Shown here in pieces: positions 799 through 18,624 of a stretch of DNA of 64,000 nucleotides. The stretch is from Candidatus Saccharimonadota bacterium (GTDB lineage Bacteria; Patescibacteriota; Saccharimonadia; Saccharimonadales; JAXHMH01). Made by a program: the position numbers and the translations under genes. Numbering within the stretch: the stretch's first letter is position 1; each line of letters begins with the position of its first letter. The DNA is taken from contig JAXHMH010000002.1 of the NCBI GenBank assembly GCA_034521515.1, positions 216,379 through 280,378 of the forward strand, read 5' to 3'. Below the pieces are notes generated by a model. The model was not told where the DNA came from. It saw only the letters and a list, made by a program, of their open reading frames with translations, and ran no database searches.

Positions 799-3318
799 TT
801 ACTCTGTTTTTTCTTCGGTTTCGTCGGTAGGCGGTGTCACGTCAACGAGTGCCAAAGATACAACCTTATCGTCATCATTAAGGCGCATAATCCTCACGCC
901 CTGTGTTGCTCGACCTAATGCCGGAATATCTTTTAGACCCAACCTTATAGTTTGACCCTGAGAAGATATGATGATTACCTCCTGGTTCTCATCGACCAAC
1001 GACTTCACGCCGATAAGTTGACCAGTCTTTTTATTAACAATTGCCGAGCGAATACCTACACCACCCCTTGCGTGTGGAGTAAATTGCGAAACCTTGGTAC
1101 GTTTGCCGTAGCCATTTTCGCTAATCACAAAGATATTTGAACCCTCTTGAACAATGTCCATGCCGATTACATAATCACCACCTCGCAAACGAATACCACG
1201 CACACCACGAGCCACTCTGCCCATTGGCCGCACATCCTTTTCATGAAAACGAATCGCTTGACCCTGGGAAGTCGAAATAACAATCTCATTGTCGCCGTCA
1301 GTCATACGTATCCACTTCAGTTCATCACCATCATCAAGGTTTATAGCTATCAAGCCAGAACTGCGCACGTTCTTATACTGCTCAAACGGTGTCTTTTTAA
1401 CGACTCCCCTGACCGTACACATAAATAGGTGACCGCCGTTCATTTGCTTGGTTACATTAATAACGGCACTCACCGTCTCCTCTGGTTGCAGTTGCAACAA
1501 GTTGACAATAGCAACACCCTTGGCATTTAAGCCTACAGCCGGAACTTCATAAGTTTTGAGCCGGAACACTCGTCCCTTGTTTGTGAAAAACAAGAGGTAG
1601 TCGTGCGTACTAGCATATACGACATGCTCTATAACATCTTCTTCTCGAGTCGCCATGCCACGCTTACCTTTACCGCCACGATTTTGTCTTCGGTAATCAT
1701 TAATCTGTGATCGTTTTATGTAGTTCGCGGACGTTAGTGTCACAACTACTTGCTCGTCAGGAATCAGATCTTCGTCACCGAGTTTGCCAAGCTCTTGTGG
1801 AACAATTTTTGTACGTCGTTCATCGCCAAACGTTTTCTTAACTTCAAGCAGCTCGTTTTTAATAATCTTTAGTATTTTTACTTCACTGGCTAAAATACTT
1901 TCCAGCTTTTCAATCAATTTCAACAGTTCTACTAACTCGTCTTCAATCTTCTTTCTTTCCAAGCCAGCTAGTGTGCGCAGCTGCATAGCCAGGATAGCTT
2001 TAGCCTGAATTTCAGATAGCTTGAACTGTTTGATTAAATTCTCTTGCGCTTCTTCGGTCGTCTGGCTCGCTCGTATGGTCGCAATAACTTTATCGATGTG
2101 GTCAAGTGCAATCTTTAGACCCTCTAGTACATGAGCTCGCTCTTTAGCCTTTCTTAGCTCAAACTCAGTGCGCTTCCGTATGACCGATACGCGATGTTTA
2201 ATGTATTCTTGCAAAATGTCCTGCAAGCCCAGCACTCGAGGCTGGATACCGTCAACCAGGGCGAGCATATTAAAGTGGAAACTGGTTTGTAGCGGTGTCA
2301 TTTTATATAGCTGATTGAGCACTTTTTTAGGATAGGCGTCTTTTCTAAGCTCAATGACAATCCGCACGCTACCTCGAGCACTTTCATCACGTAAATCAGA
2401 TATGCCAGTTAGCTTCTTGTCTTTCACAAGATCAGCAATTTTTTCAATCAGCGTGGCTTTATTAAGTGAGTAGGGTATTTCGGTCACAATTATTGAGTGA
2501 CGGCCTTTTTTGCTTTCTTCAATGTCGGCGACGGCACGCACCATAATGCCTCCACGCCCTGACGTGTAGGCATTCCTGAGCGACTCTTTGCCGTAAATTA
2601 TGCCGCCTGTAGGGAAATCTGGACCTTTTACATATTCCAAGAGGTCGTCAACAGTAGCTTCCGGGTTGTCTATCATGTGTACCGTGGCATCGACAAGCTC
2701 GTTCAAGTTATGCGGCGGAATATTAGTTGCCATACCTACAGCAATACCCATTTGACCGTTCAAGAGCAGATTAGGTAGCTTGGCCGGCAGTACCGATGGC
2801 TCACGCTCACTGCCATCGAAGTTATCGCGAAACGGTACGGTTTCTTTTTCGATATCTGCCAACATTTCTTCGGCTGCTTTAGCCATCTTAGCCTCGGTAT
2901 AGCGCATAGCAGCTGGTGGGTCTCCGTCCATAGAGCCAAAGTTACCTTGACCGTTAACCAACATATAACGCATCGCCCAGCTTTGCGCCATACGTACCAT
3001 TGAGTCGTATATTGCAGTGTCACCATGTGGGTGATATTTACCGATGACATCACCAACGATACGTGCACTTTTTACAAACTTCGAACCAGGCCTCCAGCCA
3101 TTCTTGCCCATCGAGTACAAGATTCGCCGATGCACCGGCTTAAGGCCGTCGCGAACGTCCGGCAATGCACGAGCAATGATAACGCTCATAGAGTAACGAA
3201 GGTAGCTATCCTCCATGACGTTTTCAACAGAGAGGTTCTCGAGTGTCTTAGAGTGTGTCTGCAATGGTTCTTGTGGCATGATATCGCCTTCTAGTGGTGT
3301 GTTGTTTTCTTCATCCAT
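799..3318 (-). CDS. gyrA: DNA gyrase subunit A
   Basis: 839-aa ORF with KYHPHGD, the active-site region [10 protein letters not shown], and C-terminal beta-pinwheel repeats. Immediately downstream of gyrB. Confidence 0.97.
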
Positions 3319-5505: not shown

Positions 5506-7131
5506 ATGTTTAAAAAACTGCTCAGCAACCTACCTTTTAATCCTAGCCTCATCGGTCAAGTATCTTTCTATGCCAAGCGACTACGCTCTGAAGAAAAATT
5601 ACGCCGCGTAGGTATTAGTCTTGTCGCATTATCGGTAGTCATACAAATGTTTGCGGTCTTTATTCCGCCAGAACCAACCCTTGCTCAATCTGGCAACGAT
5701 ATCATTCGTGGCGGATTCAGCAACACCCATGAAGCAACGCTAATGTGTCTTGATTCGACTCGAGATTTCGGGGCGATATTAAATCATTTTGGTTTTAACT
5801 GTAATCATATAGGAAATGCCCAAACAGTGTCACTGAAATCTACCTCAGTAATAGATGGAAAAGAATTGTACTCAATGGGTCGACATGCCAGAGGCCCAAT
5901 TGGACGTAGTAATAAAAACACTGATGAGCGTTCGGTTCGCATCAACAACGACACTTTCTATATAAGGCGCTTGGCCTCACTCGATACCTGGGCATCCTCA
6001 ACCTACCCCGCACTTAGACTACAAAACAGCCAGGGTAAGGTTATGTACATAATTAAGGATTGTGGTAATCCGGTATTAATAGGAGTCCCGCCTCCGCCTC
6101 CTGAGGTTGTCGACAAAGGAGTTTGCGAAGTTACTTCATACCCTGCTTCTGTTAAAAGAGGCGAGCGTTTTAGTGCAACTGTACGGGTTAGTAATAGCGG
6201 GGATACAACGTGGGATCCTGAGGAAAACTATAGACTCGGCTCACAGAACCCTCAAGACAACTGGAACTGGGGAACCAACCGAATAGATTTACCAAGACGC
6301 GTTAGTCCAGGGTCGAGTCTTGATATTACCGAGTCGTTCACTGCACCAAGTTCGGCCGGCACTCATCAATTTTCATGGAAAATGATTCAGGAAGGTGTGC
6401 GCTGGTTTGGTGAGTCCTGCTCAAAGCCAATTGTCGTAACCGCACCCGAGCCGGAACCGGAGGAACCAGACGAGCCAGAACTAACTCAAGAGCCGGAGCC
6501 AAAAGACGTATGTCCAGAGCTACCTGACGCTCAAGATGATATCGCTAGTTGCCTCGAACTTGGAAAAACTGCCAGTAATATTACCCAAAACGTCGCAGAC
6601 GCTAACAACACAACTGCCGCTGCTGGCGATGTAATTGAATATACCTTGCTCGTCACCAACGAGAGCACCAAAACTCTAAGCGACTTTGTTTTTGAAGAAC
6701 CCCTTCATGATGTTCTAGAGTATGCCGATATTATTAAACAAGGTGACGCGGAGTTCGACGAGAACTACCAGACACTACGCTGGCCAGAAGCCGACATCGA
6801 ACCGGGTGCAACCGAAGAAAAAGTCTTTCGTGTACGCATAAAGGATCCTATCCCTCAAACTCCAGTTTCTGTGTCCGACCCAAACTCCTATGATCTAGTT
6901 ATGACGAACGTATTCCACGGTGTAACGATTAATATCCGTCTCCCTGGAGGGGTAGTAAAAACCACTGAACAGGTTGCAACAACGCTGCCAAATACCGGCC
7001 CTGGTACAAATCTAGCTGTAGCTTTCGGTATAACTGTTATCGTCTCTTACTTTTTTGCCCGCACTAGACTGATGTCTAAAGAGGTAGCCATAGTACGAAC
7101 TGACTATGCAAGCAGTGGGAGTGCATCATGA
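5506..7131 (+). CDS. Sortase-anchored (LPXTG-type) cell-surface protein with an NBR1-like Ig domain and a DUF11-like repeat
   Basis: N-terminal TM/signal anchor. C-terminal LPNTGPG + hydrophobic stretch + RTR. Middle region: VSNSGDTTW...THQFSWKMIQEGVRWFGE (NBR1-like Ig), PEPEPEEPDEPE linker, AGDVIEYTLLVTNES (DUF11-like). Confidence 0.75.
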   Translation: MFKKLLSNLPFNPSLIGQVSFYAKRLRSEEKLRRVGISLVALSVVIQMFAVFIPPEPTLAQSGNDIIRGGFSNTHEATLMCLDSTRDFGAILNHFGFNCNHIGNAQTVSLKSTSVIDGKELYSMGRHARGPIGRSNKNTDERSVRINNDTFYIRRLASLDTWASSTYPALRLQNSQGKVMYIIKDCGNPVLIGVPPPPPEVVDKGVCEVTSYPASVKRGERFSATVRVSNSGDTTWDPEENYRLGSQNPQDNWNWGTNRIDLPRRVSPGSSLDITESFTAPSSAGTHQFSWKMIQEGVRWFGESCSKPIVVTAPEPEPEEPDEPELTQEPEPKDVCPELPDAQDDIASCLELGKTASNITQNVADANNTTAAAGDVIEYTLLVTNESTKTLSDFVFEEPLHDVLEYADIIKQGDAEFDENYQTLRWPEADIEPGATEEKVFRVRIKDPIPQTPVSVSDPNSYDLVMTNVFHGVTINIRLPGGVVKTTEQVATTLPNTGPGTNLAVAFGITVIVSYFFARTRLMSKEVAIVRTDYASSGSAS

Positions 7132-15548: not shown

Positions 15549-15649
15549 GTCAGCCCAGTAGTAGACTTTTGAGTTAGCGCGCTTTCGATGCAAACCTATT
15601 AGATTTCAGTTTTGCTGAAATCCTTCTCAAAAGCTCACTACTGGGTCAG
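15549..15649 (-). mobile_element. ~100-nt terminal-inverted-repeat hairpin element, copy 1 (MITE-like)
   Basis: GTCAG-CCCAGTAGTAGA...GCTCACTACTGGG-TCAG. The same termini are seen at 55974-56069. Flanked by TCAG/TCAG. Confidence 0.5.
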
Positions 15650-15675
15650 ATTATCTATAAGCCGGGTTCTGTTCA

Positions 15676-15742
15676 CCCCGCACCTTTTCGTGGCGACTTA
15701 TCAATCTGGTTGCAGACTGTTTCGCCCAGAAAAGGTGCGGGG
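15676..15742 (-). repeat. 66-67-nt hairpin module inside rnpB (P18 position)
   Basis: CCCCGCACC...CAGTCTG-CAAC-CAGATTG...GGTGCGGGG. Near-identical to 15915-15980. Confidence 0.75.
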
Positions 15743-15914
15743 GAGCCAATCATCTATCTAGCTCTAGGATTGTTCCTAGAATCGAGCGGATCTTATGATG
15801 CATCTTCGGCGGGGAACCGTATGAAGACACACCTCCTTGCAGCAGACAGGGTTTACCATTTTCCATCGTCACCGACAGGAACTGTGGGCTCTTACCCCAC
15901 TCGTTTCACCTTTA

Positions 15915-15980
15915 CCCCGCACCACTTCAAGGTGCTAAACAATCTGGTTGCAAACTGTATCGCCCTGAAGTGGTGCGGGG
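15915..15980 (-). repeat. 66-nt hairpin module inside rnpB (P8/P9 position)
   Basis: CCCCGCACC...CAGTTTG-CAAC-CAGATTG...GGTGCGGGG. Paralogue of 15676-15742. Confidence 0.75.
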
Positions 15981-16165
15981 TAGTTTCGTTTCTGTGGCAC
16001 TTTCCCTAGGGTTGCCCCCGGTCGCCGTTAGCGACTGTCTTCCCCTTCGCTGCCCGGACTTTCCTCCCCCTCACCAGCTTTCAGGAGAACAAGCCTTGGC
16101 TTGCTTCTGCCTGGAAAGTGGTGAGGGGGCGATCGGCCGATAGTCTGACCTTTTTATTATATCAT

Positions 16166-16843
16166 CTACTTCTTAGATTCAGCGTCGAGAACCTCATTCA
16201 CTTCAGAATCTGCTAACTTATTTAGCTTACGAGGTACATGTGTAAAAGTAACGCTTTTAAACTGTTCAACCAGCTTTTTTATCGCTTCGTGAATTGGCCA
16301 TAAGTCCCGGTTTTTAACCTTAAAAATACCCTTCATCTGATTAACAACAAGCATGCTGTCCATATAGGCGTCAATTTCTTGAGCCCCAAGTTTTAGCGCT
16401 TCTTCAAGCCCCAGTTTAAGAGACTGATATTCCGCTTGATTGTTGGTAGTTATGCCAAGATATTCACCACTTTTCTTTATGACCGTATCGTCTAAATCAA
16501 GTAGTACATAACCGGATGCTGATGGGCCAGGATTCCCGCGAGAACCACCATCAGAATACATTTTTATGTGCTTATGCGTCTTGGGTTTACTGGAACTTTT
16601 TTTGCCCCCATCAGCCACCAAGTCAATGGCTTTGGCTAGACTTTTATCTTTATCTGTCACCTTACCTTCGGCCTCGTGGGTACTAAGCCAAATTTTCACC
16701 TTATTCCACTCATTCTCCCATCTTGGATGGTGTTGCTGTTTTTCTGCCTCTTCTGCTACCGCCTGCATAAAACTAAAAGCTTCGTTAAAATCTTTAAACT
16801 TAAACTCTTTATATAGCTGGTTGTTTGTTTCTTGCCATTTCAT
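16166..16843 (-). CDS. Fusion protein: pterin-4a-carbinolamine dehydratase (PCD/DCoH)-like domain + RNase HI domain
   Basis: N-terminus [61 protein letters not shown] (PCD signature). C-terminus [19 protein letters not shown]...NNQAEYQSL...DSMLVVNQM...NKLADS (RNase H D-E-D-D type). Confidence 0.75.
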
Positions 16844-16963
16844 CTACCTACATTCTAACAGATTACTGACTGACAGAAGCTACGTTCTGCAACAAGCAGC
16901 ATGTCCTTACGTTTAAGACGATTTAGTTACAACTGTCTGCTAAAATACAGGGGTAATCTATAT

Positions 16964-17030
16964 CGGGGTGTGGCCCCGCCTGTCTGTCTGACAAGACGGG
17001 CTGGGTAGTTGGTAGCGCGTACGGCTGGGG
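16964..17030 (+). pseudogene. tRNA-Pro 5'-half fragment interrupted by a 32-nt insertion
   Basis: CGGGGTGTGGC (16964-74) and AGTTGGTAGCGCGTACGGCTGGGG (17007-30) are identical to the 5' half of the tRNA at 17168. The segment 16975-17006 replaces GC. There is no 3' half. Confidence 0.6.
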
Positions 17031-17167
17031 TGAGCACTGCCAGTGGCAGTGTGCAAGTAAATCTTCTCTTGGAAATTTATTTCCAAAGACGAAGTTTCGG
17101 GGTCGCTGGAGGCGACCGTAAGGGTTTCACGGCCTTTTATAGTTTAAGTTATACTAGCATTTGTTGT

Positions 17168-17243
17168 CGGGGTGTGGCGCAGTTGGTAGCGCGTACGGCT
17201 GGGGGCCGTGAGGTCGCAGGTTCAAGTCCTGTCACCCCGACCA
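17168..17243 (+). tRNA. tRNA-Pro (GGG), CCA encoded
   Basis: Manual cloverleaf: acceptor CGGGGTG/CACCCCG, D GCGC/GCGC, anticodon stem TACGG/CCGTG, loop CTGGGGG, T-arm GCAGG-TTCAAGT-CCTGT. 76 nt. Confidence 0.9.
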
Positions 17244-17311: not shown

Positions 17312-17493
17312 GTTTTTCTTCCTCTTCCGATTCACGAATCCTCTCGTGAATCGGGGCGGAAACCATATCCAGGTTTTTCCTGGGCTTTTTCTATTGGTGA
17401 CTGATTTGAACCTGCGTCGCCAGGTTAGTCAGGCGCGGAAGCCCTGGCGCTCTGTCCTGTCACTCAACCATATAAACAGCCTGTAATAGAAAA

Positions 17494-17524: not shown

Positions 17525-17682
17525 TTATGAGCTGAGGCCAGTATGACAACCTGGTAGTAATCCCCAGGTGGGTACCCGCACGATGCCACCACGGTGACAC
17601 ACGAATATTGAGTTCCCTAATGATAAGTAATCAGATTATCATTTCGCTGGCGTTCTCAGCCGTAAGCTCCATTATAAATTAC

Positions 17683-18318
17683 CTACGCGCCGAGTAAAAG
17701 CCTATAAATCGTATCGATCCACGTACCCAAAAGCGGCGCGATATACGGAAAGCCCAGGAAAAAGAATATAAAAAATCCGAATAGCCCGAATGACTCAATC
17801 TGAGTCATAAATTTTTGCACTGGTTCTGGCGCAACGGCGTACAATGCTCTCGACCCATCAAGTGGTGGAAACGGAATCATATTAAATACAAAGAAACCGA
17901 TGTTTACGATAATAAATGTCAGAAGTCCCATCAATAATATCTCTGGCAGCATCGGCCCAACAGCACGAAAGATAAACGCCGCAGCTATAGCAAGCACCAG
18001 ATTCGTCAATGGTCCTGCTATAGCAACCAGTGCTGCGCCATACTCTTCAAATCGTACTCGAAACGGGTTAAATGGAACTGGCTTAGCCGCACCTAAAACC
18101 GGCGCACCCATCAACGCTAAAAGTACTGGCATGCCAATTGTTAAAAACGGATCTATATGCTTGAGCGGATTTAGGGTTAATCTACCCTGTAAATAAGCCG
18201 TGTCATCACCCAGCCAATGTGCTGTAAATGCGTGCATTGCTTCATGCAATGTCAATGAAACCAGTATTGTGCCAATAATAACGGCTATGCCAGCCGGACT
18301 GCTAATAAATTCAACCAT
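17683..18318 (-). CDS. Site-2 protease family (peptidase M50) membrane metalloprotease (start trimmed to ATG 18318)
   Basis: HEAMHAF (HExxH) and NMIPFPPLDGS (NxxPxxxLDG), multi-TM. The track's 39-aa N-terminal extension overlaps the divergent rpmB promoter region. Confidence 0.75.
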   Translation of the reverse strand: MVEFISSPAGIAVIIGTILVSLTLHEAMHAFTAHWLGDDTAYLQGRLTLNPLKHIDPFLTIGMPVLLALMGAPVLGAAKPVPFNPFRVRFEEYGAALVAIAGPLTNLVLAIAAAFIFRAVGPMLPEILLMGLLTFIIVNIGFFVFNMIPFPPLDGSRALYAVAPEPVQKFMTQIESFGLFGFFIFFFLGFPYIAPLLGTWIDTIYRLLLGA

Positions 18319-18429
18319 ACCATGACAGTATACCAACCGTTGACTTATAAGAGAAAAACAGATACAATTGCCAATCGAATATTCCGTTATTGAAACGAAC
18401 GGGCAACAAAGGAACAGAAGGATAAACCC

Positions 18430-18624
18430 ATGCAACGATGTGAATTAACCGGTAAAGGTAAGCAGTTTGGTCATAACGTTAGCTTTTCGCAACGTCATAC
18501 CAAGAAAGTCTGGAAACCAAATCTCCAAACTAAGACTGTTGAAGTTGATGGCAAAAAAGTCAAAATGAAGCTTAGTACTCAAGCTATCAGAACACTAAAG
18601 AAACAAGGTGTCATAGCAAAATAG
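18430..18624 (+). CDS. rpmB: 50S ribosomal protein L28
   Basis: 64 aa, MQRCELTGKGKQFGHNVSFSQRHTKKVWKPNLQ. Confidence 0.9.
   Translation: MQRCELTGKGKQFGHNVSFSQRHTKKVWKPNLQTKTVEVDGKKVKMKLSTQAIRTLKKQGVIAK

Follow-up and report, generated by a model that had tools for sequence, protein, structure and literature searches.

Saccharibacteria and other Patescibacteria form a large, mostly uncultured branch of the Bacteria, with tiny genomes and usually a single gene per tRNA. Several described systems come close to what is found at the tRNA-Pro locus reported here. Tyrosine integrases of prophages and genomic islands give rise to partial duplications of tRNA genes (attL/attR), and bacterial 23S rRNA may contain intervening sequences that take the place of hairpin loops and are cut out by RNase III. 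Small non-autonomous mobile elements (MITEs, REP/BIME and the palindromic elements derived from IS200/IS605) are recognised by terminal inverted repeats and target-site duplication, or else by a fixed 4-5-nt target, subterminal hairpins and a partner transposase. Integron attC and the attP(+) of CTX phage are folded single-stranded recombination sites. Group I introns have a conserved P1-P9 core, a length of about 200 nt or more and a 5' exon that ends in U; group II/III introns have a domain V, a domain VI with a bulged A, and exon-binding pairing with the 5' exon. Finally, according to PMC10714607, which cites Fujishima et al. 2010, Thermoproteales carry mobile tRNA introns at canonical and non-canonical positions.

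The feature considered here is a partial copy of tRNA-Pro(GGG), interrupted by a structured element and standing beside the intact gene, in a 64-kb stretch of DNA (the window, by which we mean all of the DNA that was analysed). With the archaeal introns, the likeness lies in short structured inserts in the D arm, at 37/38, in the variable region and in the T loop, in spread between different tRNAs and in the possibility of nesting; but the archaeal introns sit in complete functional genes with a bulge-helix-bulge cut by the splicing endonuclease, whereas here the host is bacterial, the interrupted copy is partial, an intact gene stands beside it and no such motif is seen. With integrase-mediated duplications the feature shares a direct repeat of part of a tRNA, a break in a stem-loop, a functional gene that is restored and arrays that can accumulate at one tRNA. 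Unlike them, it has no integrase or island, its repeats are separated by 137 nt, 5' and 3' fragments are equally frequent, and a conserved 85-nt structured RNA, absent from viral contigs, lies exactly at the break. The 23S intervening sequences are likewise structured inserts that replace hairpin-loop bases in a stable-RNA gene, with a patchy distribution, but they are extended single hairpins of variable sequence in functional rRNA genes, whereas here a conserved three-hairpin unit sits in non-functional tRNA fragments.

The element is also small, noncoding, multicopy and hairpin-rich, with a preferred target and nested insertions, as MITEs, REP and IS200/IS605 elements are. It differs from these in that no terminal inverted repeats or target-site duplication were seen, and in its conserved G-U pair, its GNRA-type loops, its tRNA-sense orientation and the partial duplication of its target. 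As to attC and attP(+), an arm fragment and its inverted copy could by analogy fold into a target-mimicking duplex with the element as a bulge, and cassette-like arrays occur (L125, L081). However, attC sites conserve structure over sequence and require an adjacent integron integrase, a gene not seen here, and the loop types found here favour RNA over DNA.

The position between nt 37 and 38 is the canonical one of tRNA introns (the element follows G37 at 17030, and nt 38 is at 17115), the flanking direct repeat of part of a tRNA is what an att site would leave, and the many dispersed short noncoding copies are what MITEs or IS200/IS605 derivatives would show. As a group I intron the element was rejected on its 84-88 nt, on giving no Rfam intron match at E up to 10 and on the preceding base, G in 97 of 98 copies; as a group II/III intron, on giving no Rfam match, no flank-interior covariation and no bulged A in hairpin c. 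We file it under none of these families, because its agreement with the defining features of each is partial at most.

The interrupted tRNA-Pro copy and its neighbourhood

The feature lies in a noncoding stretch of 840 nt between the RNase H/pterin-dehydratase gene and the M50-type peptidase gene. The parts of the region are the following.

15642-16148, minus strand: RNase P RNA, class A (Rfam, 235.9 bits)
16166-16843, minus strand: RNase H/pterin-4a-carbinolamine dehydratase fusion gene
16941-16959, plus strand: possible old tRNA promoter region, TAAAAT at 16941-16946 and TAATCT at 16954-16959 (read from the sequence)
16964-16974, plus strand: first part of the displaced 5' fragment, copying tRNA-Pro nt 1-11 (exact repeat of 17168-17178)
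16975-17006, plus strand: GC-rich 32-nt hairpin replacing G12-C13 of the partial copy
17007-17030, plus strand: copy of tRNA-Pro nt 14-37 (3' part of the D arm, 5' strand of the anticodon stem, anticodon loop through G37)
17031-17114, plus strand: structured element, 84 nt, inserted at tRNA position 37/38
17034-17041 paired with 17045-17052: hairpin a of the element
17058-17098: hairpin b of the element
17101-17107 paired with 17111-17117: hairpin c of the element, the last pairs using tRNA nt 38-40
17115-17124, plus strand: stub, tRNA-Pro nt 38-47, ACCGTAAGGG versus GCCGTGAGGT (alignment with the tRNA and with homologous units)
17125-17134, plus strand: imperfect inverted complement of the stub, TTTCACGGCC
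17126-17155, plus strand: promoter-like TTCACG-18 nt-TATACT (consensus scan, 9/12 matches)
17168-17243, plus strand: intact tRNA-Pro(GGG), CCA encoded (ARAGORN; Rfam tRNA, 63.3 bits)
17396-17470, plus strand: possible decayed second unit of the downstream class (inverted repeat I10; tentative)
17683-18435, minus strand: M50-type peptidase gene

A preliminary description of the region had seen in it a displaced partial duplicate of the complete tRNA-Pro gene downstream, with copies of nt 1-11 and 14-37, and this holds. ARAGORN and Rfam both call the intact gene, and both a repeat finder and short-word BLAST find the exact repeats: 16963-16974 equals 17167-17178 (12 nt, including one base 5' of the tRNA), and 17007-17030 equals 17181-17204 (24 nt). 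The statement that identity ends at the anticodon is right in placing the break in the anticodon loop, but identity ends after G37, one base 3' of the anticodon, and resumes in the stub at 17115-17124, where A-CCGTAAGGG agrees with tRNA nt 38-47 at 7 of 10 positions. Since the tRNA sequence resumes at nt 38 after 84 nt, these 84 nt are an insertion in a truncated tRNA copy, and the stub completes the anticodon stem around the element. The hairpin formed by the stub and its inverted complement is perfect in two comparison loci, L150 and L031 (8 bp, CCGTGAGG/CCTCACGG); considered as a terminator, that of the window is no more stable than shuffled sequences.

The 32-nt hairpin in place of GC was also correctly described: it replaces G12-C13, was found once in the window and folds stably (-22.1 kcal/mol, z = -4.2). 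Its placing as the leading feature does not survive comparison. It is absent from the homologous units of L150, L031 and L141, and the 37-nt hairpin of L029, at nt 15/18, is unrelated to it. It is a later, lineage-specific secondary insertion into a fragment that was no longer a tRNA, and one that would presumably shorten the direct repeat able to delete the unit.

A promoter with TATACT feeding the intact gene had been suggested as well, and the consensus scan recovers it as TTCACG-18-TATACT. The TATACT box, 12 to 37 nt 5' of the first base of the intact tRNA, is conserved in L150, L031 and L141, and the site most likely drives the intact tRNA-Pro. Boxes resembling a -10 also precede the partial copies in homologous units, and it is possible that the old promoter region in the window would drive a chimeric RNA consisting of the tRNA 5' part and the element.

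The intact tRNA-Pro(GGG) of the window is identical in sequence to that of L003, L004, L011, L019 and L029. The gene usually lies near homologues of the RNase H/pterin-dehydratase gene, in either orientation, and this linkage is kept across Saccharibacteria with varying orientation and distance (60 to 2700 nt; L001-L050); the fusion itself is common, and Saccharibacteria-like contigs contain thousands of homologues. Where the window has tRNA-Pro, its four closest relatives have QueA (queuosine synthesis). In P0002, P0003, P0006 and P0007, closest by the RNase H/PCD protein, the gene order differs and there is no tRNA-Pro at the spot, so they provide no empty-site comparison.

Two neighbours deserve mention in their own right. 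The RNase P RNA has several large insertions relative to the Rfam consensus. A conserved structured noncoding region of about 150 nt (ATGATTATCTGA..TAATCAT..AGGGAGC...CACCCACCTGG...) lies at about 17535-17680 on the minus strand of the window and adjoins tRNA-Pro in many Saccharibacteria, downstream in L011, L013 and L018 and upstream in L003-L007, L012, L022, L028 and L050; its sole Rfam signal is a weak match to 6S RNA (19.8 bits, E = 0.39).

The element family

We compared 80 loci around homologues of the neighbouring RNase H/pterin-dehydratase protein, and in them three species (L031, L029 and L010) have a unit of this kind. Comparative genomics had been proposed in the preliminary description as a check, and it finds the layout of the window again in L150, L031, L029 and L141, with the break at nt 37/38 and the stub common to the homologous units; the feature is far beyond chance. 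Homologous copies of the element, 84-85 nt long, are present in L031, L029, L010, L150 and L141 (84-88 nt in the family). In L031 nt 1-37 are followed by an 84-nt insertion, the stub and then an intact tRNA of a different allele. The unit of L029 reads nt 1-15, the 37-nt hairpin, nt 18-37, an 85-nt insertion, nt 38-48 and the intact tRNA. L010 has a mirror unit: the intact tRNA, 47 nt, nt 27-37, an 84-nt insertion and perfect nt 39-76. L141 has two tandem units 5' of the intact gene, as unequal exchange between repeats would give. Distribution is patchy, with an element unit at about 3 of some 30 Saccharibacteria tRNA-Pro loci. At 2855-3225 of L010, three generations of tRNA-Pro are found at one locus: the first allele is a 5' half whose element has lost an internal part; into it, at about nt 47, a second allele has been inserted as an intact gene; and the third allele, that of the window, is present as a 3' part with a full element.

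The preliminary description noted the three hairpins, and folding confirms them, but it treated them as incidental, whereas they are the conserved core of the feature and belong to a widespread structured element. Four of the insertions (window, L031, L029 and L010) align over their full length, and RNAalifold folds them into the three hairpins; of the 37 pairs, 14 show compensatory changes. The covariance model built on them (R1) found no further copies among the genome loci compared. Metagenome contigs were then scanned with a degenerate 26-nt pattern based on hairpin a, which matched in more than 120 places at least, and among the first of the matches listed R1 gave 113 matches in 100 loci. 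Once aligned, these 113 copies have 93.9% of their cells paired and compensatory changes, on both sides, in 35 of 37 pairs; the covariation score is 0.538, against 0.167 when shuffled and 0.03-0.07 with partners slid. Conservation of sequence in hairpin a is partly due to ascertainment, part of it being fixed by the search pattern; model matches outside the pattern have other sequences in hairpin a that are still paired (e.g. L081 12872-12980). One pair of hairpin c is G-U in 79 sequences and the hairpin loops are often of GNRA type, which places the structure on the tRNA-sense strand and favours RNA. The data show the structure of the element to be under selection on that strand. In many loci (e.g. 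L104, L112, L125 at 11259, L156, L167) a longer variant occurs, with a branched domain (GCAAGGCCGGAAGCCGG...GACUGAGGCGGGG) in place of hairpin b and often with an AT-rich hairpin added to hairpin c.

The element of the window scores 112.7 bits with the covariance model, and there is no second copy in the 64-kb window. A search of Rfam 15 with the window and 26 other loci gave no match to the element, the only matches there being tRNA and RNase P RNA, and we found no description of it in the literature, including by its sequence. Three loci with the element carry species labels: two are Saccharimonadales MAGs, and L010 is labelled Parcubacteria and has a gene neighbourhood that matches Saccharibacteria. 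In one metagenome locus a neighbouring protein has its nearest matches among Saccharimonadales proteins. What emerges is a Saccharibacteria-wide structured RNA of about 85 nt, with three hairpins closed by a tRNA arm, beside an intact gene.

Given these data, the least probable of all the explanations, and one essentially excluded, is that a neutral duplication arose locally and its hairpins are accidental, or that the assembly is at fault. Short tandem duplications near tRNA genes are indeed common, and the source is a metagenome-assembled genome of Candidatus Saccharibacteria, but the unit is present in independent assemblies from different projects, and the element covaries across the whole family.

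Our counts of architecture rest on 133 pattern copies among the metagenome matches listed. An intact tRNA lies no more than 600 nt away in 99 of them, always on the same strand, and at least 15 amino-acid identities are represented among the tRNAs concerned. The element sits in loops of partial tRNA copies, in the D, anticodon, variable or T arm, and the units fall into two mirror classes, upstream (49 copies) and downstream (50). In an upstream unit a promoter-like box and tRNA nt 1 to x, the break point being at 17, 22-25, 37, 45 or about 53, are followed by the element. Next come a stub, present in every copy, that carries the tRNA on for about 8-25 nt, then the local arm in an inverted copy, a sigma-70-like promoter and the intact tRNA. 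A downstream unit starts with the intact tRNA and a palindromic A-run/hairpin/T-run terminator, continues with an inverted, diverged tRNA 3' part starting TGG, a short loop and a stub ending at about nt 53, and closes with the element, nt 56-76 with CCA and another terminator; no promoter is obvious in downstream copies. Most family members have an inverted copy of the local arm beside them, with imperfect pairing, and a check for selection at the RNA level gave a weak bias (30 G-U against 17 A-C). Where the element sits, the tRNA itself has two loop bases (TT in the T loop and GT, CG or CA in the D arm) or, in tRNA-Pro, the single base G38, which are replaced; the base 5' of the element is usually the last of a GGG. 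The feature in the window is a bona fide member of this family, of the upstream class, with x = 37.

A decayed unit of the downstream class may also be present in the window at 17396-17470, with its element almost wholly lost; we make this assignment tentatively, from the alignments. An inverted copy of the tRNA T-arm region at 17396-17416 reaches a local alignment score attained by 2 of 300 shuffles, and about 37 nt further on, at 17454-17470, lies the tRNA 3'-end-like GTCCTGTCACTCAACCA, whose direct match alone is not significant (76 of 300 shuffles reach its score); between the two is a remnant hairpin only. In L029 a weak covariance-model match (1359-1448) occupies the corresponding position.

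The architecture bears directly on whether a genuine tRNA intron at the canonical 37/38, or half of a split tRNA, is spliced here into a working tRNA. Insertion exactly between nt 37 and 38, the RNA-like structure on the sense strand and the perfect 3' half, nt 39-76, that follows the element in L010 would all agree with splicing. But when the element was excised in silico at every plausible boundary, ARAGORN recognised no convincing complete tRNA among the 133 copies, so the interrupted copies are not tRNA genes. The 3' side in the window goes no further than nt 47, with an intact gene alongside. A bulge-helix-bulge is impossible on inspection of the consensus, since the element offers the preceding GGGG no complement close to its 3' end, and its 3' junction falls within hairpin c; an insert of 84 nt is too small for group I or II. 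The half-tRNA, split or intron-bearing gene entertained in the preliminary description therefore has to be given up: true introns are very improbable and essentially excluded.

Insertion, inheritance and the competing explanations

Several elements are nested (L088, L163, L099, L194, L113), in every case at CGGG|GTCGC, a site within the element itself that is similar to a T arm. In orthologous tRNA-Pro loci the insertion is at nt 37 or, with a long-variant element in L152, at nt 22, and in tRNA-Gln(CTG) copies are found at nt 17, 23 and 50. Nested copies and different insertion points in the same tRNA mean that insertion has been repeated, and we conclude that the family has undergone repeated independent insertions. 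The sole fixed feature of the target is the G, mostly GGG, 5' of the element. Among the copies we found no target-site duplication, no terminal inverted repeats and no guide-like pairing of the flanks, and mutual information between flanks and interior revealed alignment-shift effects only. The element encodes no transposase, integrase or reverse transcriptase, and none recurs within 2.5 kb of the copies; 341 neighbouring ORFs, when clustered, gave housekeeping families only.

Two kinds of locus extend this picture. In tRNA-Lys arrays (L125 11170-12760; L081 10950-13140, minus strand) units alternate with accessory genes and 9-nt repeats of the tRNA 3' end in a cassette-like layout. According to Pfam the array genes encode a GNAT acetyltransferase, an Asp/Glu racemase, an alpha/beta hydrolase and one small HTH protein, and there are small ORFs as well; a gene for a 165-aa HTH protein of resolvase/transposase type abuts the L125 array. 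In L157 (about 6050-6623, minus strand), L126 (about 900-1350, plus strand), L094 and L143 the element lies in a hairpin loop of another structured RNA, whose ends pair (GGTCCTGCCG...CGGCAGGACC), with no Rfam match and no partial duplication nearby.

The preliminary description had suggested a recombination scar, a sensible direction. In its classical form, as the att-site remnant of a prophage or island at tRNA-Pro, with the element as part of attP or of the island end and the island mostly deleted, we consider it improbable. Integrase-mediated integration characteristically leaves partial direct repeats of a tRNA, the breaks do fall in stem-loop regions, and the tRNA-Lys arrays with their accessory genes and tRNA-end repeats would suit such an origin. 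Yet 137 nt separate the repeats of the window, with no integrase or island between them, and no recombinase recurs within 2.5 kb of the 133 copies. Two element patterns had no match in 2.9 million viral contigs. The spacing is stereotyped, 70-90 nt or 120-190 nt, unlike random deletion end points, and besides the balance of 5' and 3' fragments the D loop and the variable region are also used.

The suggestion of a tRNA-derived RNA was likewise sensible, and a related idea, a small RNA gene of benefit to the host, is in our opinion the main rival, ahead of the conventional integrative-element remnant, though still unlikely. The units would be inherited vertically and would carry a functional RNA domain (e.g. 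a protein-binding module), expressed from the duplicated tRNA promoter and stabilised by the tRNA-arm stem, the tRNA pieces being scaffold and leftovers. In its favour, the changes in the element are compensatory, the structure is strand-specific and RNA-like, promoter-like boxes lie 5' of the partial copies, the element is also lodged in another structured RNA without partial duplication (L157, L126), and in orthologous units it is more conserved than neighbouring noncoding DNA: among the window, L150 and L031 it is 85-89% identical, as compared with 63-67% for the adjoining spacer. This difference indicates selection on the element, but the comparison leaves unsaid who benefits, and evolution slower than that of the flanks fits a host-useful RNA kept in place as well as it fits a mobile element. 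Against a host RNA, the position of the element in the tRNA fragment varies freely (nt 17, 22-25, 37, 45, 53), copies are nested, occurrence at tRNA-Pro is patchy, the downstream class lacks an obvious promoter, and the fragments decay while the layout recurs.

A possible mobile element and its meaning

On balance we lean, with rather little to spare over an even chance, towards a mobile element that is non-autonomous and RNA-structured; on integration it would duplicate part of the tRNA that it targets, and an intact gene would remain. The homologous units, the size of the family, the covariation, the mirror classes, the signs of insertion, the conserved element and the promoter-like site all speak for it. 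The element would enter the loops of tRNA arms after a G, replacing one or two loop bases, and a recombination or copying process would duplicate part of the tRNA; with part of the tRNA duplicated on entry, a functional gene would always survive. The displaced fragment and the element would be transcribed from the former tRNA promoter as a putative chimeric RNA, the promoter of the unit itself would drive the intact tRNA, and the enzyme responsible would act in trans.

Several results count against mobility. There is no recurrent enzyme gene within 2.5 kb and none in the element; target-site duplication, terminal inverted repeats and guide-like pairing were not found among the copies; the window holds a single copy; and for the sequence 'direct copy, inverted copy, direct copy' with its promoter or terminator we can name no direct mechanism.

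A bolder form of the same proposal is that the element represents a new class of bacterial mobile RNA element, colonising the loops of tRNAs and structured RNAs through an RNA or a folded single-strand intermediate. The chemistry of insertion would itself give the 'direct, inverted, direct' duplication that rescues an essential single-copy tRNA, and at some tRNAs the element would serve as the junction of accessory-gene cassettes, integron-like with no linked integrase. We hold this to be conceivable but doubtful.

With more than 100 sequences and strong covariation, the element is a candidate new RNA family, and its units yield false "tRNA pseudogenes" and "half tRNAs" in annotation. A structured RNA that settles repeatedly in tRNA genes without destroying them implies recombination, reverse-transcription or RNA-processing machinery that is not yet known, and with it a new route of genome rearrangement in Patescibacteria. 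The arrays with accessory genes suggest a cassette-capture system, which could matter for gene flow between episymbionts.
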